Assembly (NCBI GenBank): GCA_051439605.1
Contig: JBFRWN010000006.1
Span: 1-12,217 of the forward strand
Source: Synechococcus sp.
GTDB lineage: Bacteria; Cyanobacteriota; Cyanobacteriia; Thermostichales; PCC-7336
Direction: 5' to 3'
Length of the DNA: 12,217 nucleotides
Made by a program: the position numbers and the translations under genes. The notes under the pieces are model-generated. The model saw nothing but the letters and a program-made list of their open reading frames with translations, did not search any database and had not been told where the DNA came from. Below, one piece after another: positions 1 to 12,217 of this stretch. The stretch's first letter is position 1, and each line of letters opens with the position of its first letter.

Positions 1-2243
1 TCGCGATCGCTTTGGGTGAGCAAGCGGTGCGCTACTGGAAAGAGTTGATAACCCCGCTGTTCCCCCCGCAAAATGGCAACAGCTGTTTCCGTTGCTTCAA
101 ACCCAATCTGTACCCCTGCTTGGTCGATCACCGATTGCAGGGGGCTACTGTTATCGAGGAGCTTTCCGGCCGTGTGTTCGGACAGATCCAAGATGCCAAA
201 AACTGCCGTGCGATCTTGACGGCCTAAGGTTTCAACCGCCTTCACGGCCAAGTTAGTTGCGACGTTGGAGCCACCCCAGAGAATATCGATGGTGGAGTTT
301 TTCTCCAACATTGATACAACGAGATCGAGATCCGCTCTCAGATCGACATCGACAGAAGCCACCTCGGCCCAGTTCAGGCCAGTGGCATCCAGTGCCGCCA
401 TAAAGCCTTCAAAATAAGGGTAGTTGCGATCGTAAATCGCACTTTCTACCAAGCCAATATTGATGGTGTCGCGATCGGGGAAATGGGTTTCGATCCAGCC
501 GACCATGTGGGTACCGGAATCGTAGCCCATTTGAAAGCTGTTGGTGTTGTAGCAGGCAAACACCAATCCCGCCACATCCATATCGTCAAAGCAAAAATCC
601 ACCGTAATCGTCACCACACCAGCATCGTGTGCTTCCCGAATGGCCGGGATTGACCCAACGGGGTCTTCGGGTCGCAAGACGATCGCATCGATGGAATTCT
701 CGATCAGGGAACGAATTGCCTCTGCTTCGGCCTCCACACCAGTCCCCGACTGCACGCTCAACACCTCAACCTCGCGATTGGCCGCCCGTTGCATCCCTAA
801 TTCGTAGGCACTGAAAATAGCCTCTTCGGTAGAGCGAATCAGGCCCACCCGCAAGCGCCGCGGACGATCGCGGTGGATGCGGTTCGCCCAGTTTTCGCTC
901 ACCAGGGCTTGCATCCAGTCATGACCCCGCTGCAGCTGGTACTCCGACCAAAAACTCGCATCTCGCAAATCGGTTCCTGCCAAGAAAGCCTCGCGCAAAC
1001 TCGTCCCGTTGCGCAGGTCGGTAAACCGCATGGATGCCCCGGTTAAATTGACTTTGTAGAGATCGGCCCCTTGAAAATTAGAGCGATTGAAGTTGGCCCC
1101 AATCGCATTCGCACGGTAGAGATAGGCCTCACTGAAATCTGTCCACAACCCCGTGGTTCCGGACAGATTTGCCTCTGAAAAATCGGTGCTGCGGACAATC
1201 GCACCATTGAGTTTACTGTTGGCTAGATTGGCTTCAACCAGAGTGGCCCCTTCCAGAGTGGCCCCTTGCAAGTTTGATCCCTGTAAATTCGCCCCTTGTA
1301 AGTTCGCCCCTTGTAAATTCGCCCCTTGTAAATTCGCCCCCTGTAAATTTGACCCTTCCAGATTGGCCTCGACCAGTTGGGCTCCTGAGAGATCGGCCTC
1401 TTGCAAAGAGGCGCGAGAAATATCCATGCCGTGAAATTGCCGTACTTGTAGCGGCCATTGGGTTAAACTAGCCAGCCCGAGGGTCCAGCGACGGCATTGA
1501 GTTAAATCGATGCCGGACAGTTGCGCCTTTGATGCTTGCATGCCAGCATTATCGGCACACAAGACATTAAGGGTTTCTAGCGCCTCGATTCTGCCGTGGC
1601 TGTATTCAATATCCCTTTGTTCGGCGATTGTCTTGCGAGACTCTTGAATGGCCCGTTGCCGACGAAAGGGTAGTGCATAGAGGTAAGACACGAGGGCAAA
1701 CAAAAAGGCAGCTTCCCCCAATACAGTGGCCAGCTTGACGATTGAAACTGTTTCCAGCCAGGCTACAAAATCAGCCACCTTGGCATCTAGCAACGATACC
1801 GGTGCCAGCAGAATTTGCTTGATGCGATGCGATTCCGGCGGGTTCGAGTGGCGGTAAGCCTGGAAAATCCGCAGGTAAGTTGCGCGGGACAGCTCTAAGG
1901 TCTCAATCTCTTTGGCAATGGCTCGTTCCCGCCCGTCCCACCCTGCGATCGCCCGTACGTGCTCGAAGCTTGTTTCTAAGAAACGTTCACCTGCACCTTC
2001 ACCGGCATCACGATCGTCAGCAGCATTCATAAATCGGGTCAGCAACGACTCGAAGTCGGCAAACGGCAAGTTCAGCCGATCGGCAAGTGCCTTGGCAGTG
2101 GCCTGCCGCTGGTCGTCATCCACAATGCTGCTGGTGCGATGGAGACACCGCACCAATTGCAACCACCAGTCACTCTCCACTGCTGCTGCGCCAGAATCAT
2201 CGGTAGCAGCTACGTTGTCGGTATTATTGGTTTCTCCAGTCAT
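1..2243 (-). CDS. Membrane-anchored pentapeptide-repeat / sugar-type solute-binding-domain fusion protein (partial, runs off window start; >747 aa)
   Basis: Not in the ORF track because it has no stop in the window. Manual translation from ATG (cat at 2241-2243) is open to base 3: MTGETNNTDNVAATDDSG...; hydrophobic stretch VKLATVLGEAAFLFALVSYLYALPF (~1665-1740); pentapeptide repeats ASLQE-ADLSG-AQLVE-ANLEG-SNLQG-(ANLQG)x4... (~950-1427); C-terminal RbsB/Peripla_BP_4-like region (LRVGLIRS...EAEAIRSLIENSIDAIVLRPEDPVGSIPAIREAHDAGVVTITVD...QSVIDQAGVQIGFEATETAVAILRGE, ~1-860). Confidence 0.9.
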   Translation of the reverse strand, partial: MTGETNNTDNVAATDDSGAAAVESDWWLQLVRCLHRTSSIVDDDQRQATAKALADRLNLPFADFESLLTRFMNAADDRDAGEGAGERFLETSFEHVRAIAGWDGRERAIAKEIETLELSRATYLRIFQAYRHSNPPESHRIKQILLAPVSLLDAKVADFVAWLETVSIVKLATVLGEAAFLFALVSYLYALPFRRQRAIQESRKTIAEQRDIEYSHGRIEALETLNVLCADNAGMQASKAQLSGIDLTQCRRWTLGLASLTQWPLQVRQFHGMDISRASLQEADLSGAQLVEANLEGSNLQGANLQGANLQGANLQGANLQGSNLQGATLEGATLVEANLANSKLNGAIVRSTDFSEANLSGTTGLWTDFSEAYLYRANAIGANFNRSNFQGADLYKVNLTGASMRFTDLRNGTSLREAFLAGTDLRDASFWSEYQLQRGHDWMQALVSENWANRIHRDRPRRLRVGLIRSTEEAIFSAYELGMQRAANREVEVLSVQSGTGVEAEAEAIRSLIENSIDAIVLRPEDPVGSIPAIREAHDAGVVTITVDFCFDDMDVAGLVFACYNTNSFQMGYDSGTHMVGWIETHFPDRDTINIGLVESAIYDRNYPYFEGFMAALDATGLNWAEVASVDVDLRADLDLVVSMLEKNSTIDILWGGSNVATNLAVKAVETLGRQDRTAVFGILDLSEHTAGKLLDNSSPLQSVIDQAGVQIGFEATETAVAILRGEQRGYQLFPVAHRLLTQSDR
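1237..1356. repeat. 15-bp tandem repeat encoding pentapeptide repeats
   Basis: Eight 15-nt units. The core 1282-1341 has four near-identical copies of TGTAAATTCGCCCCT, and 1237-1266 has two copies of (A/T)CCAGAGTGGCCCCT. They encode ANLQG/ATLEG-type pentads on the minus strand. Confidence 0.95.
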
Positions 2244-2357
2244 AGTGTGCTGACCGAATGTTAGGGACCGATATCCCCCTCGAAAGAACGATTCGGATCG
2301 ATATCAACTTTGTTTAAACATCAATGCCTCGGAGGTCGCAATTCAACTTAATGCTAG

Positions 2358-3650
2358 TCATGAGGATTCGACTTCAGCGATCCCCAGCATCGTTTGCAAG
2401 GCGGCGCGATCGAGCTCCCGATACCCAGAAGGGGATAAATAGGTGACTACCACCAGATCCGATCCCTGATTCCCGTCATCCGTAAAGTCGATCTCGATCC
2501 CGCCCAAATCAAATTTGGAGGTTCTCACCTGTTGCACGAATGCATCTCGGGTTAGCTCCCCTTCGATATTGTCGAGAATTTTAAGGGTCATTTTGCCGAC
2601 GATATACCCCTCCAATTCCACAAAGCCGAGGCGATCGCCCAATATCTCGCGCGCTTCGTTCACTATCGGCAAATTGGCGTCCAAGAGGGGAACTACCTGA
2701 GTCATGACAATCTTTTCGGCTACACCGTATTCCTCGAGATCGAACTGAAAATCATCTGCGCCGGTAAACGAGACAGCTGAGATAATCCAGTCCTCCCCCT
2801 GTTCTTGTGCTTGTTTGGCAAATCGAGCGATATTTCCGTAGGTTCCGGCTGTGACCACCAACTTGCAAGCGTTGCCGGTTTCGCGCTCCCAGGATTTCAG
2901 CGAATAGTAGCCGTCCTCGACAATTGGAGTATTGCGGGTATAGACCCCTACAGGGCCGATATTGTTGCGATCGGGGCTATCTCCCTCCATTTGGATGATG
3001 CGGTCGTAAAGTTGCAGAGTTTCTGGTGCGAGCTGTGTGTTCTCCAGCGATCTTCGGACTCCGGTGAGACCAGCCATACCGTAGCTATCATTTTGTACGT
3101 AGGCACAAACCTGATTGGGCAAGAGTCCCGCATCCAGACCCATCTCGATTGTCGCGGCGATTTCCTGCGTGTAGCTGGCCCGATAATTCACGATCGGAGC
3201 GTCGCTGTCGCGCAAGAACTCGGCCCCGGTAAAGAAGCCGACCGCCGGAATTTCCTGTTCTGTCAGCAGGGGCAACGTGACTTTAGCCGTCGGGGTACCC
3301 ACATTGCCAATGGCCAAAAAGATATCGTCATCGACGATCTCGCGAGTTGCTTGGAGGGCTGTGGGCGGTTCGTAATAATCGTTGACAAACATCAGATCGA
3401 TGGAGCGACCGCGAACGCTTGCCCCGTCAAAGGCAGCTTGCAAACCCGCCTTCATGCCGTTGCCCAATCCCTCCGCATACCCCTGCAATGCCAAAACGGA
3501 GCCGAACCGGATGGTATCTCGGGTTAATCCTGCGGTCGTGGGGGAGGATGCCCGACAGGCTGAAAGGCCCCATATAGAAAGGACTAACAGAACTCCACCA
3601 ACTCTCGGGAAATGCCTCGAAAACATGACTCGTACGAACAAAGGGAGCAT
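2358..3650 (-). CDS. ABC-type ligand-binding lipoprotein (type I PBP, LivJ/Peripla_BP_6-like)
   Basis: 430-aa ORF with signal peptide and lipobox (LLVLSIWGLSA-C). Family motifs IRFGSVLALQG, NDYYEP, IGNVGTPT, GFFTGA, NYRASY, QNDSYG, VSFTG, EGYIVG. The true start may be the ATG at 3626 (MFSRHF...). Confidence 0.85.
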   Translation of the reverse strand: MLPLFVRVMFSRHFPRVGGVLLVLSIWGLSACRASSPTTAGLTRDTIRFGSVLALQGYAEGLGNGMKAGLQAAFDGASVRGRSIDLMFVNDYYEPPTALQATREIVDDDIFLAIGNVGTPTAKVTLPLLTEQEIPAVGFFTGAEFLRDSDAPIVNYRASYTQEIAATIEMGLDAGLLPNQVCAYVQNDSYGMAGLTGVRRSLENTQLAPETLQLYDRIIQMEGDSPDRNNIGPVGVYTRNTPIVEDGYYSLKSWERETGNACKLVVTAGTYGNIARFAKQAQEQGEDWIISAVSFTGADDFQFDLEEYGVAEKIVMTQVVPLLDANLPIVNEAREILGDRLGFVELEGYIVGKMTLKILDNIEGELTRDAFVQQVRTSKFDLGGIEIDFTDDGNQGSDLVVVTYLSPSGYRELDRAALQTMLGIAEVESS

Positions 3651-4017
3651 AAGAACACTGTCCGATTAAGCAGAGCGGATACCACACTGCTCCAATCCGT
3701 TGATGCCAAAAGGCAGACACATAGATTTAGACCAAAGTCTAATAACCTGCAGGGGAGTAAGTTCCCTACTCTACAGGACGATGGTACGAGCTTTCAGCTT
3801 TTACCATCGTTGATGTGAAAAACCTTAGCAGAACTTCCCTAGCTAGAGCCTCATTGCATTCACTCAACCTCGAATCGCTCTATCTATAAGCTGCATCCGA
3901 GGGTGGCTTGCCACAATAAGCCGAGGCTAGCCTTCCTAAAGTTCAATGTCCCAATGCTTTCAAATTGCCTGTTGAGATCCGTATCCCATCTGAGTTTCGC
4001 TTGAAGGGTAGCTGTTT

Positions 4018-5727
4018 ATGGCGCTTGATTACTTTGCCCCTGGGGTTTACGTCGAAGAGGTCGATCGCGGCAGTCGTCCGATTGAAGGGGTCAGCTTGAG
4101 TGTGGCTGGCTTCATTGGGTTTACCGAAGACATTCGTGGCGATGCCGAACTCTTCAAACCCGTGATGATTACCAACTGGAGCCAGTATCTGGAATACTTC
4201 TCCAAACCGGGATCGGATGGGTTCACCGATTTCGACGCCTATTTACCCTTTGCGGTACAGGGGTGGTTCGACAATGGTGGCGGTCGCTGCTGGGTAGTCA
4301 GCATCGGTACCCGATTGCCGGGCTCCGAACCCCCACCCCCCGAGCAGACGGGAACGAAATTACTAGCAGCTAGCGGTCGGCCCAGCCTGCGCATTGACCT
4401 GCAATCTTCCGATGACGTCGATACGACTGCTTTGCCCGCTTCTACCGAACGCATCACCGTCGTGGTCACCGATAGTACGCCGAAACCGTTGCCCGAGGAT
4501 GCAGGGGAAGATGAAGAGCCACCCCTCGACACCGGCGAATATTTTAGTATCACTATCAAGCGGGGGGACGAAACTCTGGCAGCATACGATCATCTAACGA
4601 TGAATTCAGATGCTGAGGAGGAGATAGCTGATTATGCTGTCACGGCACTGGCTGAAGATGAGTATGTTGCCATTACCAACCTGACTGAGAGCGGCCAACC
4701 TCTCTCTCGAAGGCCGGCCAACGGTCTGTACGAAGTGGCTCCACCCCCGTATATTTCTCCCCTCGATCGCCTGTCTCGTGACTTACAGGGGGTGCGCGAC
4801 GACCGCAAGGGATTGCAGGGGCTGTTCGAAATCGATGAAGTTGCTACCATCGCCTGCCCCGACCTGATGCGAGCCTACCAGTTAGGTTTGATTGTTCTCG
4901 ATCAGGTCCATGCAATCATGGAGATGATGGTCAGCCTGTGCGAAAATTCATTCCCTGGACCGCCCTATCGCATGGCCGTCCTCGATTCGCCGCCGGTCAA
5001 GATGGGCAAACATGAGAACCAAGCCGTGCCGCCGGAACAGCAGAAGCCCCAGCACGTTGCCGAATGGTTGGGTGCCTTTAACCGCCGGTCGATGTTTGGT
5101 GCCCTGTACTATCCCTGGATTAAAGTTGCGAATCCCCGTAATGGCGGAAAGCCTATTTTGGTGCCCCCTTGCGGCCATATGATGGGGATTTGGTGTCGCA
5201 CCGATCAAAACCGCGGCGTTTTCAAAGCACCGGCCAACGAAACCCCTCGCGGAGTCCTTGGGTTGGCCTACGAAACCAATATGCGAGAGCAGGAACTGTT
5301 GAATCCTTTGGGCATCAACTGTATCCGCAACTTTGGTAGCTACAACCGCGGCTACAAAGTGTGGGGGGCTCGGACCCTGGTGGAGCCAGATAACGTTCAG
5401 TGGCGCTATATCAGCGTTCGCCGACTACTCAGCTACATCGAAAAGTCGATTGAGATCGGCACCCAGTGGGTGGTGTTCGAGCCCAACGACCAAGATCTGT
5501 GGGCCAGGGTTACCCGCACCGTCAGTAACTTCCTAGAGCGTCTGTGGAGAGAGGGAGCTCTATTTGGAGGTTCCCCGGCTGAAGCCTTCTACGTTAAGTG
5601 CGATGGCGAGTTGAACACTAACGACACCATCATGTTGGGTCGGTTGTACGTCGAAGTTGGCGTCTGCCCGGTAAGGCCGGCAGAATTCGTTATCTTCCGC
5701 ATCAGTCAGTGGGCTCCCAACCAATAA
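4018..5727 (+). CDS. Contractile tail sheath protein (eCIS Afp2/3/4-like, phage tail sheath family)
   Basis: N-terminal APGVYVEEV; YYPWIKV; PPCGHMMGIWCRTD...GVFKAPAN; LNPLGINCIR; VWGARTL; WRYISVRR; WVVFEPND..LW; PVRPAEFVIFRISQ. All are hallmark sheath motifs. Confidence 0.97.
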   Translation: MALDYFAPGVYVEEVDRGSRPIEGVSLSVAGFIGFTEDIRGDAELFKPVMITNWSQYLEYFSKPGSDGFTDFDAYLPFAVQGWFDNGGGRCWVVSIGTRLPGSEPPPPEQTGTKLLAASGRPSLRIDLQSSDDVDTTALPASTERITVVVTDSTPKPLPEDAGEDEEPPLDTGEYFSITIKRGDETLAAYDHLTMNSDAEEEIADYAVTALAEDEYVAITNLTESGQPLSRRPANGLYEVAPPPYISPLDRLSRDLQGVRDDRKGLQGLFEIDEVATIACPDLMRAYQLGLIVLDQVHAIMEMMVSLCENSFPGPPYRMAVLDSPPVKMGKHENQAVPPEQQKPQHVAEWLGAFNRRSMFGALYYPWIKVANPRNGGKPILVPPCGHMMGIWCRTDQNRGVFKAPANETPRGVLGLAYETNMREQELLNPLGINCIRNFGSYNRGYKVWGARTLVEPDNVQWRYISVRRLLSYIEKSIEIGTQWVVFEPNDQDLWARVTRTVSNFLERLWREGALFGGSPAEAFYVKCDGELNTNDTIMLGRLYVEVGVCPVRPAEFVIFRISQWAPNQ

Positions 5728-5740
5728 TGTTGTTGAGTTG

Positions 5741-5783
5741 TGAGGCCTGCAAGCAGGCCTCAATCGAGGTTTAACACCCTCGA
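5741..5783 (+). promoter_or_regulatory. Twin stem-loops between sheath and first tube gene (no U-tract; candidate RNA processing/stability element)
   Basis: Perfect 10-bp inverted repeat TGAGGCCTGC-AA-GCAGGCCTCA (5741-5762), followed directly by TCGAGG...CCTCGA (5764-5783). The structure is seen; the function is inferred. Confidence 0.5.
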
Positions 5784-5831
5784 AGCCTAGATCCCCCAGC
5801 TGTACTCGCATGCCTGCAAGGAGGGCCTGTC

Positions 5832-6329
5832 ATGCCAGAACTTACCAAGCCGATTGCACCAAGTAGTTTTTATTTGGAAATTGCTGGTGTTGCTGAAGCG
5901 GAAAAGTCTGTTTTCAAAAGTGTGAGCATTCCCGATTACCAGCCCAAAGTACAGGGGGGAAGTGAGGCGATTGGTACCACTAAAGGGGGAAAAACGATTT
6001 GGCAGGTAAACTCTGCCGGTTTTGAAGGATTATTTACGTTTGACTGTGTCACTATTGCCAGCGGCGATAGCGATAGCACCAGCATGTCAATGTACAACTG
6101 GTTCAAAACCTGTCTGCCTTCTTCCAACGGGGGTGATGGTAAATGGGATGGTGCCAAGAAAGAGGGCAGCATTACTGCCTACGATACTGATGGAAATGAG
6201 GTAGCCAAGTGGCAGTTTGCCGAAGCATGGCCATCGAAATACAAGTGTGGCGATCTCGATGTGACCTCCGATAGCTACATCGAAGAAACGTTCACGATTA
6301 CCTGCGAAAAGTTCAACCGAACCAAGTAA
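5832..6329 (+). CDS. Tail tube protein 1 (T4 gp19-like / Afp1-5 family)
   Basis: 165 aa, SD AAGGAGG at 5818-5824. Motifs SSFYLEIAG, MYNWF, KKEGSITAYD, WQFAEAWPSKY, DLDVTS, EETFTITCE. Directly follows the sheath gene. Confidence 0.9.
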   Translation: MPELTKPIAPSSFYLEIAGVAEAEKSVFKSVSIPDYQPKVQGGSEAIGTTKGGKTIWQVNSAGFEGLFTFDCVTIASGDSDSTSMSMYNWFKTCLPSSNGGDGKWDGAKKEGSITAYDTDGNEVAKWQFAEAWPSKYKCGDLDVTSDSYIEETFTITCEKFNRTK

Positions 6330-6454
6330 GTCCGAGGTCGTTCGGGCAAGGCTAGTTTTGTAGCACCCCAAACAAGCAAGCTAACCTATCGCATCTGACG
6401 TCAAGAGAATTCGTTGCAGTACAACCGTAAGCCAAGCGGAAAAGGGTAATTACG

Positions 6455-6937
6455 ATGGTTCAGTACCTAACTAATTCCAAATTTTATTTTGAAATTGACG
6501 GTGTTACAGCCTTGTCCCTCAAGACCATCAACGGCCCCGAAATCGAAATGGATGTTGCTGGAGGCGATTCGGCCATTGGTGTCAGCAAAGATGCCAAAAC
6601 TCAAACGCAGGCTACGATTGGGGGGGTAAAGTACAACAGCACCATGACCCTGACTTATGTCGCGGGCAACGAAGGGGAGCAAGCAAAACTCTCGAAGTGG
6701 TACGACGATTGCCACCCCGATACATTTTCTGGGGGGTCCTCCAAAGCGATGGATAGCCGCAAAACCGGCTCGCTGGTGGTTTACGATCCAAACGGTAAAG
6801 AGGCCATGCGATTTAACTTCACCGATTTGTTTCCGGGGAGCAAAAAGCAAATCAGTTCTCTCGATGTTTCCAGCGGGGGCCAGTTGGGGGAAGATTCCAT
6901 TGAGCTGTACTTCACTCAGGTAGTTCGTAAGGTTTAG
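6455..6937 (+). CDS. Tail tube protein 2 (divergent gp19-like paralogue)
   Basis: 160 aa, colinear with tube 1: SKFYFEIDG, GGDSAIGVSK, LSKWYDDC, RKTGSLVVYD, RFNFTDLFP (AWP motif altered), SLDVSS, EDSIEL. Confidence 0.85.
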   Translation: MVQYLTNSKFYFEIDGVTALSLKTINGPEIEMDVAGGDSAIGVSKDAKTQTQATIGGVKYNSTMTLTYVAGNEGEQAKLSKWYDDCHPDTFSGGSSKAMDSRKTGSLVVYDPNGKEAMRFNFTDLFPGSKKQISSLDVSSGGQLGEDSIELYFTQVVRKV

Positions 6938-6990
6938 AGAGATTAGGTCCCTTTCCCGCTTCGATCGCCACTGCTGGAGATTTTCGCGCC

Positions 6991-7479
6991 GTGCCGAACT
7001 TTCCCGAGATTCTCACCACGTCCCGCTTCTATTTGGAACTCAAGTTGGACGGCAGTACCGACTCTGTCGATGGTGTATTCAAGGAATGCAGCGGTTTTCA
7101 GCGCTCTCAAGAGGCGATCGAGATTTGTGAAGTGACTCCTCAACTGTGGGGTAAGAGGGGCAAAACACCGGGACGCATGGTTCGGACTAAAATTCCCGGT
7201 AATGCCTCCGTGAGTAACATCACGTTAAAACGAGGTTTGACCATCTCTTCAACCTTGTGGAACTGGATGCAAGCGGTGGAGGAGGGAGACTGGGCCGAGC
7301 AGAGGCGAGATGGGGCAGTGGTTGTCTACGATCAATCTTCTAAAGAGCGATTCCGGTTTGAATTCGAGCGAGCTTGGCCGGTGAACTACTCAATTTCCGA
7401 CTTAGACGTGACCAGCGGCGATCACAATATCGAACAGTTAGAGATTGCGGTCGAGAACCTGAAGCGTGTTGAGGCCTGA
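6991..7479 (+). CDS. Tail tube protein 3 (gp19-like; possibly Afp5-type tube initiator)
   Basis: 162 aa, GTG start with GGAG upstream. Motifs RFYLELKLDG, FKECSG, TKIPG, NITLKRG, LWNWM, RRDGAVVVYD, FERAWP, IEQLEIAVE. Confidence 0.92.
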   Translation: MPNFPEILTTSRFYLELKLDGSTDSVDGVFKECSGFQRSQEAIEICEVTPQLWGKRGKTPGRMVRTKIPGNASVSNITLKRGLTISSTLWNWMQAVEEGDWAEQRRDGAVVVYDQSSKERFRFEFERAWPVNYSISDLDVTSGDHNIEQLEIAVENLKRVEA

Positions 7480-7484
7480 TAGCA

Positions 7485-7931
7485 GTGATCGACCTGAGCA
7501 ACCAACTGAATCTGGACCCGATCGCTAAACCGGCAAACACCGTTCCCGCTGTCCACGACGTATCGGCTTTGCCTATCAGGGGGGAGTCTCAAGCTCCGTT
7601 TCAAACGACGTTCGAGTTCAAGTTGCCCAAGGGGTATTTAGATGGAGAGGGTAACCTGCACCGCAGCGGTGTCATGCAATTGGCAAAGGCGATCGACGAA
7701 ATTGTGCCGATGCGCGATCCGCGGGTGAAGTCCAACCCGGCATACGCGACGGTGATTATTCTGTCGCGGGTGATTCTGCAATTGGGAGCGTTGGAAGAAA
7801 TTTCGCCTGTGGTGGTAGAGGGGATGTTTGCCTGCGATTTAGATTACTTGCAAAAGTTTTACCGTCACATCAACGAACTGGAAGATGAGGGGGATCGGCC
7901 TCAAGCACCGGCTCCAGATGCGGTGTCTTAA
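7485..7931 (+). CDS. Putative tail assembly chaperone, copy 1 (no C-terminal CxxC)
   Basis: Motif TFEFKLPKGYLD.EG.LHR.G.M.LA.A.DEI...DPRV..NPAY...ILSRVI..LG, typical of the small gene that follows the tube genes in actinobacterial/cyanobacterial eCIS loci. The position matches phage tail assembly chaperones; the chaperone function is inferred. Confidence 0.75.
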   Translation: MIDLSNQLNLDPIAKPANTVPAVHDVSALPIRGESQAPFQTTFEFKLPKGYLDGEGNLHRSGVMQLAKAIDEIVPMRDPRVKSNPAYATVIILSRVILQLGALEEISPVVVEGMFACDLDYLQKFYRHINELEDEGDRPQAPAPDAVS

Positions 7932-7971
7932 ACTCAAGCATGTCTAGCCAGCCCTCCGATCGCAACTACCT

Positions 7972-8367
7972 ATGACCTCAGGCAACCCAGCATTGACCGA
8001 CTTGCCCATTACGGAATTTGAGTTTGTCCTCCCTCGGGGCTTGTTGGATGACGAGGGGATGATTCATCGGCAGGGGGCGATGCGACTGGCTACGGCGGGT
8101 GATGAGTTGGCCATGCTGAAGGATCGGCGTGTTGGTGACGAACCGGCTTACGGATCGCTGATTTTGCTGGCCAGGACAATCGTGCGCTTGGGGCAATTTT
8201 CTGCTGTGACGCCGGAGTTGTTAGAGAATTTGTTTACTCAGGATTTAGCCTATTTGCGCGAGGTCTACAATCGCATCAACCAACAGGGGAGTTTGCACGT
8301 GCCGACGGAATGTCCCCAATGCAAACATGCATATGGCATCGATTTAGCACTGGCGGGGGAGTCGTAG
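7972..8367 (+). CDS. Putative tail assembly chaperone, copy 2 (gpG-like; CxxC, ends LAGES*)
   Basis: 131 aa; 42/93 identical residues to copy 1 in an ungapped manual alignment; C-terminal ECPQCKHAYGIDLALAGES. Confidence 0.8.
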   Translation: MTSGNPALTDLPITEFEFVLPRGLLDDEGMIHRQGAMRLATAGDELAMLKDRRVGDEPAYGSLILLARTIVRLGQFSAVTPELLENLFTQDLAYLREVYNRINQQGSLHVPTECPQCKHAYGIDLALAGES

Positions 8368-8405
8368 GCTACCCCTCGGAGCGGCTGTACGAGGAGGTAG
8401 CCTGC
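8355..8405 (+). promoter_or_regulatory. Candidate programmed -1 ribosomal frameshift signal (G_GGG_GAG plus 15-bp stem-loop)
   Basis: G-run at 8355-8359 phased GCG GGG GAG TCG TAG. The stem pairs 8364-8378 with 8390-8405 (one G-U pair, bulged A8395, 11-nt loop). The -1 frame is open to 8513. Confidence 0.7.
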
Positions 8406-8513
8406 ATTGCCGCAAATTTTCACTGGTCGCTGGCGGATATTATTGCCCTCGATCATGGCGATCGCTGTCGGTGGGTGGCTGAGATTGAACGGTTGCTGCA
8501 ACGCGATCGCTAG
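8358..8513 (+). CDS. DUF6760-like domain (gpT-like), probably expressed as the -1 frameshift extension of 7972..8367
   Basis: GVVGYPSERLYEEVACIAANFHWSLADIIALDHGDRCRWVAEIERLLQRDR matches my recollection of the DUF6760 pattern (Y....L.EEVA.IA..FHW....I..L.H..R..WV.EI). The codons before GYP are GGA GTC GTA, with no ATG/GTG/TTG. The ATGs at 8310/8319 lie inside the upstream gene and add a non-family leader. Confidence 0.8.
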   Translation, partial: GVVGYPSERLYEEVACIAANFHWSLADIIALDHGDRCRWVAEIERLLQRDR

Positions 8514-8515
8514 TA

Positions 8516-8620
8516 TCTCATCGACTCAATAAATCGCCGGCCAAATAGAAATGGTTCTAACTTTCTCTGACTCACGAAAAAGTAGACCCAGCAGCCGCTC
8601 TGTTTTTGAATCTGTTCGGT
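8516..8620 (-). mobile_element. Possible heavily decayed terminal attC site
   Basis: Plus strand TCTCATC-GAC-TCAATAAATC-GCCGGC...GCCG-CTCT-GTTTTTGA-ATCT-GTTCGGT. It lies downstream of the stop of 8669..9139; one core is degenerate. Confidence 0.3.
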
Positions 8621-8668
8621 ATTGAGGGGCAATCGTAATACACAAATTGTCTTCGGTCCGATGTATTT

Positions 8669-9139
8669 CTATATCCCGATTCCGTAAAAGTAAACGGTGG
8701 TTGCTTCGGGGTCGGCAATTAAAGAGTGGGAACCAGAGCTAGTCCAATCATTCGACACATCCGCCTCGTAGCATTCCGCTTCTGTCATTGTATGAGGGTT
8801 CCACGGCGAAGAGAATTGGTCATAACCATTGGGGAGATCGAAACGGTCTTTGATATCGGCACAGGAAGTTTGCTCAAATCCAGTTGCCAAAATTGAAGCC
8901 AATACAGTTTTGTCGGCATTAAATCGAAGATAAATTCTGTAACCCTGCCAGGTATCGCCAACCCCCTCCAGCTGAGTAACTCCAGTGGGTACTGGATCGA
9001 CCAACAGATGAACGAACATTTCGCGCGGCGTATTGGCAGATGTTGGTCCGTTGGCCCGTTCAAGTCCAGTAAGTTCTTTGCAGCCGCAAAGCGAGATCGT
9101 GGCGAGCATTATTCCAGCTTTAAAAATCTGCCTTGCCAT
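8669..9139 (-). CDS. Hypothetical lipoprotein (cassette gene)
   Basis: 156 aa; GGAGG 6 nt before the ATG; signal peptide with lipobox ISLCG-C. Starts 17 nt after an attC-like GTTATGC core. Confidence 0.8.
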   Translation of the reverse strand: MARQIFKAGIMLATISLCGCKELTGLERANGPTSANTPREMFVHLLVDPVPTGVTQLEGVGDTWQGYRIYLRFNADKTVLASILATGFEQTSCADIKDRFDLPNGYDQFSSPWNPHTMTEAECYEADVSNDWTSSGSHSLIADPEATTVYFYGIGI

Positions 9140-9155
9140 TTTGGCCTCCGCATTG

Positions 9156-9239
9156 GCATAACGTTTGGCGTCACCAAGGTTAGGGAAAGTTCAAAGACTC
9201 AAAAAAGGTAGTGCGATCGAGTGCATGCACGAGCTGGAA
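9156..9239 (-). mobile_element. attC-like site (R'' core decayed)
   Basis: Minus strand TTCCAGC-TCGT-GCATGCAC...GGTGACGC-CAAAC-GTTATGC. The L'/R' half is intact; AAC has become AGC in R''. 84 bp, 23 nt after the stop of 9263..9670. Confidence 0.7.
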
Positions 9240-9262
9240 AGCGGCAGATTTAGGTTTATCCT

Positions 9263-9670
9263 CTAGTCCCACCAAAGGGTGATTTTCATAATTCGTGGAA
9301 GATCTCTTTCCATCACCTGTAAGCCAAAGTCTTCCGATTCTGGATCGAGTCCTTCTATCAACTCTAGATTTACAGGATCTACCTTTTGTCCTAGCTCCTC
9401 GGCCATTTCGAGCATTTCGGCAAGGCAACCGTATCCCTGTTCGATCGTATCGGGACAAAATTCATAGACTTCTTTGCAGAAATTAGAAAGATTATCTGGA
9501 AGTGAATCTAGCTTCAACTTAACCGTTGCGCCATTGACTTCCAGCACTTCAAATCTAAATCTATTTGACCAATCAATGAGACGATCCACTATGTCCTGTG
9601 TTTCGACATCATAGTTAATGCCGTTAGTGCCAACCTGCAGAATGTTCTCAATGGCCTCGTTCAGTTCCAT
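9263..9670 (-). CDS. DUF4253-like protein (cassette gene)
   Basis: 135 aa with EVYEFCPDTIEQG and terminal TLWWD, the DUF4253 signature as I recall it (E.Y.FCPD.V.QG...WWD). Confidence 0.8.
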   Translation of the reverse strand: MELNEAIENILQVGTNGINYDVETQDIVDRLIDWSNRFRFEVLEVNGATVKLKLDSLPDNLSNFCKEVYEFCPDTIEQGYGCLAEMLEMAEELGQKVDPVNLELIEGLDPESEDFGLQVMERDLPRIMKITLWWD

Positions 9671-9701
9671 CTGAATTCCCGAAAATTATAGCGGTTTGAT
9701 T

Positions 9702-9786
9702 AGCTAACGATGAGCGCCACCAGCTGCCAAAATCTTACGGTGAAGTAGGCAATCAAAAAGCATTCCAGTGCACGCAAATGTCAGAC
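9702..9786 (-). mobile_element. attC-like site (R'' core decayed)
   Basis: Minus strand GTCTGAC-ATTT-GCGTGCACTGG...CTGGTGGCGC-TCATC-GTTAGCT; 85 bp. Same L-box type and spacing as 9156-9239; AAC has become GAC. Confidence 0.7.
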
Positions 9787-9803
9787 GTCGTTGAATAGCC
9801 TAG

Positions 9804-9860
9804 GGGTAATGCAAAGATCGGCGGTATGCATAGCGCATTTGCTAGAGTGCCTAGTTAGAT
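9804..9860 (-). mobile_element. Short attC-like site (R' core decayed)
   Basis: Minus strand ATCTAAC-TAGGC-ACTCTAGC...GCCGATC-TTTGC-ATTACCC; 57 bp, 26 nt after the stop of the DUF1772-like gene; GTT has become ATT. Confidence 0.5.
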
Positions 9861-9886
9861 TTATTGCTATCCACTTCCGCACTTCT

Positions 9887-10390
9887 TCAGAGTCTGAATA
9901 GTAGAATTATTAACAGGACCGAGGCTAGGCTTGCAAAGGGTGTCCTGATTGAGTTCCATAGGTTCCAACGTGGTTCGAAGTCCATGCGAGAAGCTTTTTG
10001 AGTTGTTTCATCCATATCATCGACATTCAGAGTTTTCAGTTTGTTATTCAGCGGTACGTTAAAAGTGAAAGTCGGTAATTGGACGCAAAGAAGATAGGTG
10101 AGTACAGCGATGAGCATGAGCAGCCGTTCAGCTCCATCTAATTGCCCGATGCCAAGCACAGCAGCGATCGCCAATGCTATAGCTGAGCCTACCCAGACTA
10201 ATACAAAAATTGGCTGATTATTCTGGATAACGCGATCTATCACCTGAAAAGCTCGGATAAAGTCCCTATCGCTTAAACTGTTTATACCTGGCATGATAAC
10301 GATGGCAAAAGTAAACAGGAAGCCTGCTACCAAGGAACACAGAAATGTAGCCAAAATCAATGTAGTCGGAAAGATTAGTTCTGTTGACAT
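9887..10390 (-). CDS. Anthrone oxygenase family / DUF1772 membrane protein (cassette gene)
   Basis: Four hydrophobic segments; motifs LVAGFLFTFAIVIMPG, FQVIDRVIQN, TFTFNVPLNNKL, FEPRWNLWNSIRT. Start moved from the track's 10432 to the ATG at 10390 (MSTELIFP, 167 aa) because AAAGGA lies upstream of it and 10432 falls inside an attC-like site. Confidence 0.85.
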   Translation of the reverse strand: MSTELIFPTTLILATFLCSLVAGFLFTFAIVIMPGINSLSDRDFIRAFQVIDRVIQNNQPIFVLVWVGSAIALAIAAVLGIGQLDGAERLLMLIAVLTYLLCVQLPTFTFNVPLNNKLKTLNVDDMDETTQKASRMDFEPRWNLWNSIRTPFASLASVLLIILLFRL

Positions 10391-10419
10391 GGAAAAGTAT
10401 CCTTTCTGATATTCATGCA

Positions 10420-10544
10420 ACCTAACGCCCATAAGGTTGACTGTACGCCAAGACTAATAAGGCAAAGCCAAGGCTTTCAACACCTCATACGCTGCGGGAA
10501 AATGGTTAGTCCTAACCGATCCAACACGACATCACATGTTATTT
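10420..10544 (-). mobile_element. attC-like site (both cores intact, inner arms decayed)
   Basis: Plus strand ACCTAAC-GCCC-ATAAGG...TTAGTCC...CACAT-GTTATTT; 125 bp, between the GFA stop and the DUF1772 start. Confidence 0.55.
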
Positions 10545-10581
10545 TGAACGAACCAGTAGCGAAACAAAAAACCGTCCAGTT

Positions 10582-11007
10582 CTACTGCTTAAACGACGTA
10601 TTCTCTTCTCTAAGTAAGGCCATGAATTCTTCACCTGTGAGTCGCGGATGATCGCCTGCCAAGGCATACAAATCAGGCTTTTTGTCAATGTAAATTTCGT
10701 CTGCAAGTTTAAATGGTGTTAAGTCATCAAAAGTGCCCATCCAAAGCATATAACGATCTGGCTCTTTCAAGTGATAGAAAAGATTCGCGCCACACTGACT
10801 GCAAAACCCGCGTTCCACCCATTCCGATGAATCGAATCGAGTGATGTTCTGCTCACCATTAAAACTGACCCGACCAACACTCACAGAGAAAGTTGGGTCG
10901 CCGCTCCATCGAAGGCATATCTCACAGTGGCAACTATGAACATCCGTCTCTACTTCTTCGACAGAATAGGTAACAGCACCACACAAACAACGGGCTGTAG
11001 CTTTCAT
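10582..11007 (-). CDS. GFA family (CENP-V/GFA) Zn-binding protein (cassette gene)
   Basis: 141 aa: CLCGAV, CHCEIC, SS...RGFCSQCGANLF, EIYIDKKP; AGGGA upstream of the ATG. Confidence 0.93.
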   Translation of the reverse strand: MKATARCLCGAVTYSVEEVETDVHSCHCEICLRWSGDPTFSVSVGRVSFNGEQNITRFDSSEWVERGFCSQCGANLFYHLKEPDRYMLWMGTFDDLTPFKLADEIYIDKKPDLYALAGDHPRLTGEEFMALLREENTSFKQ

Positions 11008-11110
11008 TGAAACTTCCCTAAATTAGCGATCAACTTCGAGTTTACACTCGTGACTTATAATCATAATTACTCAGCAAAATTTAAAGTAAGCGCTGCACGA
11101 GTTATACAAG

Positions 11111-11202
11111 GGCTAATGGACTGCGTTTCGCCGGACGGCCATAGAGCCTGCGGAACAAGACATAATATATACTATCGTTCCGCATGCAAGCGATTGCTAA
11201 GC
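11111..11202 (-). mobile_element. attC-like site (both cores with one transition)
   Basis: Plus strand GGCTAAT-GGACT-GCGTTTCGCCGGACGGCCATAG...CTATCGTTCCGCATGCAAGCG-ATT-GCTAAGC; 92 bp, beginning ~10 nt after the stop of 11212..11877. Related to 11922-11983. Confidence 0.65.
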
Positions 11203-11211
11203 GTCTTTCAG

Positions 11212-11877
11212 CTATCGACTTGATTTAATCTTAATGTTTTGTTCTTTGATTGCCTCCATTAAGGATTTTTCTTGCTCCTTATTGCTATACTTTATTGCTA
11301 GTAAATAGACTTTATTGCAAAATGATGCATAGCTATCTCTTTTTATCAAAGGTATTACTATTTTTGTATATTCATCTGGCGTTTTAATTTCAGCCAATGA
11401 CGAAATATAAGCTTCCAGGAATTCCTGTTCATTACCAGGAATCATCCAACTCCCAAATTCATCTGCAAAGATAATTTCTTCGCCATATTCCATTTTTGCT
11501 ATCAGCTCGTAGAGAATCTTGAAAGATTCTACAGCAGATTTATGTTCTTTCTGGTTTGTTAGCTGCGAACTCTCTAGTAAAAGATTGCCTAGCTTCTCAA
11601 ACCATTCTTCTGTTTCTTCAGGAATATGAGAAAAGTTCTTTGAATTAATATCAAAGGGCGCATAGTATACCCCAGCCAATGAGTCTTTATAGAAGTTTTT
11701 TGATTCCTTTATAATACTCTTTGCTACAGTTTTTGATGGCTTAGATTCCTTCATCAGATCGCCAAAAATATGACGTCTTTGTTGAGTATTCGTTTCGTAA
11801 TATGCCGAGTGTAACAAATCAAGCAAAGTTGCTTTAGTTTGTCGCTTTAGTATTTTAAACAGTGCATCTTCATCCAT
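11212..11877 (-). CDS. Hypothetical protein (AT-rich cassette gene)
   Basis: 221-aa uninterrupted ORF in markedly AT-rich DNA, bounded by attC-like sites on both sides. No family recognised. Confidence 0.8.
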   Translation of the reverse strand: MDEDALFKILKRQTKATLLDLLHSAYYETNTQQRRHIFGDLMKESKPSKTVAKSIIKESKNFYKDSLAGVYYAPFDINSKNFSHIPEETEEWFEKLGNLLLESSQLTNQKEHKSAVESFKILYELIAKMEYGEEIIFADEFGSWMIPGNEQEFLEAYISSLAEIKTPDEYTKIVIPLIKRDSYASFCNKVYLLAIKYSNKEQEKSLMEAIKEQNIKIKSSR

Positions 11878-11921
11878 ATCAATATCAATTCTGTCCGATA
11901 TTACACTGATCTTTCAAAAAC

Positions 11922-11983
11922 ACCTAACAAATTGCATTTCAGCAGCAGGCCTAGGCCCTTTCCTCTTCAAGCGCGAGTTAGGC
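11922..11983 (-). mobile_element. attC-like site (both cores intact)
   Basis: Minus strand GCCTAAC-TCGCGCTTGAAGAG...GCTGAAATGC-AATTT-GTTAGGT; 62 bp. The R'' and R' boxes are near-perfect complements and match RYYYAAC/GTTRRRY. Confidence 0.75.
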
Positions 11984-12217
11984 GGTTCGTGCAGCTTGTC
12001 ACTACGCGTACGGCGCCCGCTCTTTCTAGCTAGTTTGTCTAGTAATTGCGGTTGCGATTAAAGAAGCGGAAACAAGGCCGGAGCCGATCAGATACTGTTG
12101 GCGAAGTCTATGGAGACGTCTGAGAGGCGATAAGGGTTAGGTTTGCCACAGAGACCCGGCAGGAGGAATGACTCGTGCTGAAAGCGAAACCAACTGGCCC
12201 AGTGCCCGAAGAAACTG

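Follow-up and report, generated by a model that had tools for sequence, protein, structure and literature searches.

A probable programmed −1 frameshift joins a tail assembly chaperone to DUF6760 in contractile injection loci

How is a protein domain made when its coding frame opens within the end of another gene, out of phase with it, and offers no start codon near the domain? This question is raised by a locus for a contractile machine in a 12,217-nucleotide stretch of DNA from Synechococcus sp. (GCA_051439605.1, contig JBFRWN010000006.1, positions 1 to 12,217, forward strand), hereafter the window. There, a sheath gene is accompanied by three tube genes and two small paralogues, and the operon ends with a short open reading frame (ORF) coding for DUF6760.

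4018..5727, + strand, contractile sheath gene, 569 aa (PF17482 and PF04984)
5832-6329, 6455-6937 and 6991-7479, + strand, three tube-protein genes (PF06841 in each)
7485..7931, + strand, chaperone copy 1, no CxxC and no DUF6760 behind it (paralogue of copy 2)
7972..8367, + strand, chaperone copy 2, short form, 131 aa, C-terminal CxxC, proposed gpG/gpE equivalent (phrog_508, fold matches)
8355..8361, + strand, putative slippery heptamer G_GGG_GAG (junction comparison)
8361..8513, + strand, −1 frame coding DUF6760, probable gpT/E' equivalent (PF20546, hhalign, natural fusions)
8364..8405, + strand, putative stimulatory hairpin (folding, synonymous constraint, compensatory changes)
8365..8367, + strand, frame-0 stop TAG ending the short form (sequence)

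The 3' end of copy 2 reads GCG GGG GAG TCG TAG and the DUF6760 frame is −1 to it, exactly as the original prediction had described. This frame terminates at TAG 8511-8513, and a one-base −1 slip on the G-run would fuse it to 7972-8361 in a protein of 180 aa.

The locus and its two protein parts

The locus resembles a lineage II extracellular contractile injection system (eCIS), an assignment made from gene order and from its Streptomyces relatives. Core genes of that lineage are found in the window (sheath and tubes), on contig C96 (tube, CIS_tube, PAAR and VgrG) and on contig C16 of the same genome (gp25 and baseplate J), and we infer that they form one machine. The machine genes of this genome are thus spread over several contigs (C6, C16, C96). 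A second system, encoded with two sheath genes on C103, lacks both a chaperone homologue and a chaperone pair. At the other end of the window, one long ORF on the minus strand (1-2260) runs off the window start; read by eye, it consists of a pentapeptide-repeat-like block and an apparent sugar-binding periplasmic domain, and it adjoins a Peripla_BP_6 gene at 2358-3650.

The 131-aa product of copy 2 is a tail assembly chaperone. It matches the tail assembly chaperone family phrog_508 (E 1.1e-9), and comparison of its structure model (pLDDT 80) with 48,161 chains returned YqbN as the best fold (Z 7.5, rmsd 5.3, 99 aligned) and the HK97 chaperone as the second (Z 6.3, rmsd 3.9, 95 aligned); unrelated chains scored Z ≤3.3, and a Z below 8 is not decisive alone. 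In a viral model library, Foldseek placed hub assembly proteins of the T4-like gp26/gp51 type and Mu FS-gp41 at the top (E 5e-7 to 2e-3). Sequence searches with the chaperone found no match among solved structures, none by tblastn in 50,697 phage records and none to P2 gpE. A tube-sized ORF lies directly 5' of the chaperone in 32 of the 36 loci examined, as it does in the window, and the C-terminal CxxC is present in 148 of 157 chaperones whose junction is in −1.

Copy 1 shares 46% identity with copy 2 over 91 aa, and a PHROG profile search gave it no match of its own. Copies of this kind lack the CxxC end in cyanobacterial two-copy loci. Copy 1 is probably a paralogue restricted to the short form, which in this genome would add short form only. 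It also has a G_GGG_GAT near its end (7887-7893) followed by a short open −1 frame; a run of this type occurs near the end in 3 of the 19 two-copy loci displayed.

The −1 frame matches PF20546 at 35.5 bits (cut-off 27), a family with 733 clusters at 50% identity whose name, DUF6760, is absent from the literature searched. Profile comparison by hhalign with the part of P2 E' that is added by an annotated −1 frameshift gave a probability of 84.8% with 15 DUF6760 sequences and 93.6% with 116, while the maxima for sets of 30 and 40 controls (70 in total) were 0.5% and 14.6%. PF06528 was found in 9 of 15 DUF6760 members, always with scores below the Pfam cut-off. A fusion model built from database proteins reached a pLDDT of only 48. 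Taken together, the profile comparisons strongly support a resemblance of DUF6760 to the frameshift-added half of P2 E+E', which would make it the gpT/E' equivalent.

Phase, site and hairpin at related junctions

Related loci were collected from both sides of the junction. Those chosen through the chaperone comprised a set of three, the best 80 of 590 relatives and 14 viral contigs. Those chosen through PF20546 came from sampled genomes of the window's phylum (23/301) and from further samples around an actinomycete (27/251), a methanogen (12/251), a proteobacterium (7/401) and Paenibacillus (12/201). Counting the window's own, 180 loci yielded 172 with both parts (L038, L040, L041, L072, L144 and L166-L168 were dropped) and, once six duplicates were merged, 166 distinct junctions. 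By record title they come from Cyanobacteria, Chloroflexota, Acidobacteria, Myxococcota, Bacillota, Actinomycetota, Proteobacteria and archaea. Two loci labelled as enterobacterial MAGs (L083, L105) fall among Myxococcota on the chaperone tree and are possibly mis-binned.

DUF6760 is in the −1 phase at 157 of the 166 junctions, in frame 0 at 8 and in +1 at 1; because the loci are related (median 61% identity), these and the following counts overstate independence. The fixed phase that had been proposed as a check is thus found, and it holds for junctions chosen through the chaperone (81/82), through DUF6760 (66/74) and from viral contigs (10/10), as well as for 17 further loci, all −1. In the single +1 case (L148) the chaperone consists of two domains in tandem and DUF6760 lies in +1 at a T5 run, where a +1 or −2 slip is possible. 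One in-frame locus (L122) runs on into the next gene and was treated as a likely assembly error.

The site is conserved as well. Among the 157 −1 junctions, 131 carry G_GGG_GRN, which bears out the expected G_GGG_GAR; 18 carry a canonical X_XXY_YYZ, 3 an X_XXX_YYZ and 5 only T_TTT, so that a heptamer of one of the first three types is present in 152. In the bodies of the chaperones, G_GGG_GR stands in the chaperone frame at 9 of 17,466 codon positions and canonical heptamers at 74 of 17,466. The G-site lies at the same distance from the DUF6760 domain in 122 loci, with T as the next base in 120 of them; the first −1 codon after the site is Ile, Val or Met in 121/124, and the frame-0 stop falls at the window's codon or one codon earlier in 131/157. 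Variants include GGGGGAG, GGGGGGA and GGGGGGG, and in the 29 of 108 sites that read G_GGG_GGR both tRNAs would re-pair fully. Where the G-site has been lost, other heptamers take its place in frame: G_GGA_AAY (four archaeal loci), G_GGA_AAR, A_AAT_TTT, T_TTT_TTR and C_CCT_TTC. On a tree of 163 chaperones the site type switches at least 11 times. One locus (L199) has G_GGA_AAA in place of the G-site and retains the stem, and named Streptomyces loci carry the same frameshift signal. A Bacilli clade (L099, L169-L179) uses a T-run some 18-21 nt further upstream as its site and has lost both the G-run and the stem codons.

Two further signals were considered and set aside. The codon phasing of the G-run (136/138) is too close to its background (24/33) to serve as evidence. 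An upstream Shine-Dalgarno (SD)-like stimulator, a four-base match ending 11 nt before the site in 39/122, was rejected because the match tracks conserved Val-Glu codons (GTG GAG 24/46) and is absent in the window.

The hairpin at 8364-8405 (−27.4 kcal/mol) begins 5 nt after the GGG codon, covers the UAG and has 15 pairs (8364-8373/8396-8405 and 8374-8378/8390-8394), each with probability ≥0.99. In these respects it is as originally predicted; the conserved core (8368-8378 with 8390-8401), however, starts only at 8368, at a distance of 6 nt from the heptamer, and the four pairs outside it are variable. In 1000 synonymous recodings no fold was as stable (z −5.8). Across G-type junctions the stem has z < −2 in 118/131, against 11/131 and 16/131 in two control windows. 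In the main family (n = 106) six core pairs are kept in 105-106 sequences, and codons in the stem are nearly fixed: Val is GTA in 98/102 (background 12%), Pro is CCC in 96/105 (30%) and Glu is GAG in 106/106 (52%).

The covariation that had been suggested as a check is also present. Silent changes at a Leu position go together with a Glu/Gln change (28,0/3,24) in at least 4 events, and double changes recur at four stem pairs, at least 4, 4, 3 and 10 times. RNAalifold on 64 selected rows returned the same 12 pairs, and double-change cells on these rows numbered 41 against 16 in shuffles, a count that leans towards structure because the rows were hand-picked from the 106 in favour of one register. 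Sixteen loci of one clade form another helix register at the same place in the same protein family. In the interval tested, most loci with a site other than the G-site had no significant stem, and Rfam holds no family over the junction hairpin. These comparisons strongly support the view that the hairpin is under selection as RNA. Its sequence is almost unchanged from cyanobacteria to Methanosarcina, and it offers a ready test of archaeal recoding.

The two parts are also found as one chain. Three divergent proteins, 41-53% identical, encode chaperone and DUF6760 in one clean frame, all without the Gly-Gly site; these fusions are known from protein sequence, and one of them has three differing members, all fused. 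They were found among 36 longer DUF6760 proteins, of which 18 also match the chaperone. Most of these 18 appear to be corrupted by assembly errors, the six that were looked up proved to be singletons, and only P0247, P0282 and P0133 are clean. In P0224, probably an assembly artefact, the order is reversed, with DUF6760 before the C-terminal part of the chaperone.

Readings of the junction

The phase, the site, the selection on the hairpin, the homology of both halves and the missing starts are established here. We consider it highly probable (about 0.9), judging from these sequence comparisons, that a programmed −1 ribosomal frameshift yields chaperones of 131 and 180 aa. The majority of ribosomes would end copy 2 at TAG 8365 and release the 131-aa form. 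A minority would pause when Gly (GGG) occupies the P site and Glu (GAG) the A site and the hairpin stands at the mRNA entrance, move back by one base so that they face GGG/GGA, and continue from GTC 8361 as far as 8513, which gives the 180-aa form. Both forms would then be made in a fixed proportion, as a G/GT-type pair. That ribosomes slip, how often they do so and whether one tRNA moves or two are what we infer. The G/GT-style interpretation put forward originally is supported in this way by phase, site, starts, stem and likeness to E'. Its proposal that slippage occurs mainly at the P site fits the fact that G_GGG_GAG is not a fully canonical X_XXY_YYZ, but tandem slippage is plausible too: the Glu tRNA could re-pair on GGA with one G:U, needed at the second A-site position, and the junction may then carry Glu rather than a second Gly. 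In one RNA run, to which the organism contributed a small share, reads fell on copy 1 only and left the junction uncovered.

DUF6760 might instead be a separate small gene that has the G-run as its ribosome-binding site and is translated either by re-initiation at the chaperone stop or by coupling there. A near start (ATG/GTG/TTG within 15 nt of the domain) exists at 42 of the 157 −1 junctions, and the G-run can pair with the anti-SD at −8.6, as happens in 29/49 near starts; re-initiation thus stays possible for near-start loci and not for the window. The absence of start codons, predicted at the outset, holds for 81/157 junctions, which have no ATG/GTG/TTG in the stretch that runs from the last −1 stop to the conserved Tyr of DUF6760, and the window likewise has none near the domain and none usable. 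Moreover, 37 of the 42 near starts overlap or adjoin a TGA stop (37/50 TGA loci against 5/107 with TAA or TAG). RefSeq does annotate DUF6760 as a gene, yet the Streptomyces cadmiisoli copy is made to start at CTG, and in the databases its N-terminus is placed anywhere from 12 residues inside to 282 ahead of the conserved Tyr; a Brasilonema record, in a feature table known to be incomplete, lists no gene at the DUF6760 position. The hairpin would bury the start region, and the swaps between heptamers would be left unexplained. The clearest cases for a separate gene are seven actinomycete loci on one tree branch (L137-L140, L142, L143, L145), in which a stop is followed by DUF6760 in the same frame with its own ATG or GTG 9 nt before the conserved Tyr and with neither site nor stem. 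Their TGA lies 15, 18, 21 or 27 nt before that Tyr, always a multiple of three, and SD strength is mixed; to judge from this arrangement, DUF6760 may be a separate gene there or be reached by UGA readthrough. The earlier view of DUF6760 as the gpT-equivalent part of a fusion therefore stands in its similarity to P2 E' but does not extend to these seven. Together with the natural fusions, they indicate three ways of making the pair: a frameshift, a hard fusion and, apparently, two genes. For the −1 junctions, a separate gene is very unlikely.

Nearly the same protein would result if RNA polymerase slipped on the G5 run and added one G, and a G-run of 5-7 bases in most loci would suit this. The 3' hairpin, however, should still be untranscribed when polymerase is at the run, yet it is selected at a fixed distance, and the replacement sites are two-codon heptamers instead of longer runs; polymerase slippage is accordingly very unlikely. 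DUF6760 could also be translated from ATG 8310 or 8319 as an overlapping protein of 67 or 64 aa, since both ATGs are open to the domain and gene callers often pick such starts. These ATGs come about incidentally, through the Glu-Cys and Gln-Cys codons in the CxxC motif, their anti-SD pairing is weak (−2.6 and −3.5), and a start at least 45 nt upstream that is open to the domain occurs at only 45/157 junctions, which leaves this reading with hardly any probability. We retain ribosomal frameshifting as the explanation.

A candidate client and comparison with known systems

In phages, the chaperone pair serves the tape-measure protein. In lambda, an extended luminal protein becomes coated with the short form, and the added domain recruits tube protein; the two forms would have the same roles here. 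In the window, the operon ends with no tape-measure gene directly downstream. Among the 156 loci scanned, 94 have a first downstream ORF of at least 100 aa, and none of these belongs to a tape-measure family in a family search that a diverged member could escape: 50 are tube, 5 eCIS_core, 3 sheath and 10 other, and 26 have no family.

A motif search with hand-made seeds found low-complexity proteins of about 50-1974 aa that share one C-terminal helix and are encoded behind DUF6760 or behind a second tube gene. They occur at 41/166 loci, and at 30 of the 66 with long flanks; those scanned matched no Pfam family. This genome encodes one of 1974 aa (L193:8121-14042, contig C96) between a tube gene and Afp7-like, PAAR and VgrG genes, which is the place of the P2 tape-measure gene and makes it a candidate client. 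We tentatively suggest, as a possibility on the doubtful side, that systems without a tape measure keep the G/GT switch for a luminal client, the conserved-helix proteins being cryptic tape measures or cargo threads, and that the RNA signal works on bacterial and archaeal ribosomes.

The frameshift would add a widespread case of cellular −1 recoding, give DUF6760 a function and correct its annotation as a stand-alone gene. It opens to experiment how length is set, or the tube loaded, in systems for which no tape measure is known. As a practical matter, the switch would be lost if the "gene" boundaries of such operons were recoded or deleted.

Xu, Hendrix and Duda reportedly described the frameshift of phage tail chaperones, lambda G/GT, in 2004. 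As in lambda gpG/gpGT, the gene that follows the tube gene would yield two chaperone forms through a −1 slip close to its 3' end; the chaperone has an HK97 chaperone-like fold, and some relatives use G_GGA_AAG. Unlike lambda, the locus is not a phage, no recognisable tape-measure gene comes next, the chaperone has a CxxC tail, and many cyanobacteria have a second, short-only copy. With P2 gpE/gpE+E' it shares the order of sheath, tube, chaperone and −1 extension, the extension being similar to DUF6760. P2 slips on a T-run and, by its GenBank annotation, has the tape-measure gene directly next, whereas this locus is part of a cellular operon and joins its G-run to a hairpin that is strongly conserved. 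T4-like proteins of the gp26/gp51 type are the best Foldseek matches but mostly have 250-270 aa, and T4-like phages are reported, in the title of Vladimirov 2022, to be without such a frameshift. Of the same type as the site here are the GGGGGAA "fivetwo" sites of actinobacteriophage chaperones, for which the PRFect work, in the part consulted, makes the same G:U re-pairing argument as we do (PMC10885494); here GGGGGAG, GGGGGGA and GGGGGGG are used as well, with a conserved stem, in bacteria and archaea.

Among injection systems, the likeness is to lineage II eCIS, with their single sheath, tubes, conserved genes without known domain and, in the parts of these sources consulted, no Afp14 homologues (PMC6899500, PMC10066040, PMC10020575). 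The second of these reports describes a Streptomyces cytoplasmic CIS without a typical tape measure, and the third labels sco4251 as of unknown function; from gene order we take sco4251 to be this chaperone. The word "frameshift" is absent from the texts and supplements of the three that were searched. More broadly, the literature covered in part (including PMC8894136, PMC4122934, PMC8213781 and PMC3711429, one supplement of which could list such clusters) contained no description of this frameshift for injection systems. The original impression that such a frameshift had not been described for eCIS and tCIS loci holds to that extent, although tCIS was the wrong comparison because the Anabaena tCIS has a tape-measure protein, Cis14 (PMC8894136, as far as consulted). 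What the locus presents is a known phage device in surroundings new for it; its conserved RNA element is new as well, and the textbook client is missing.
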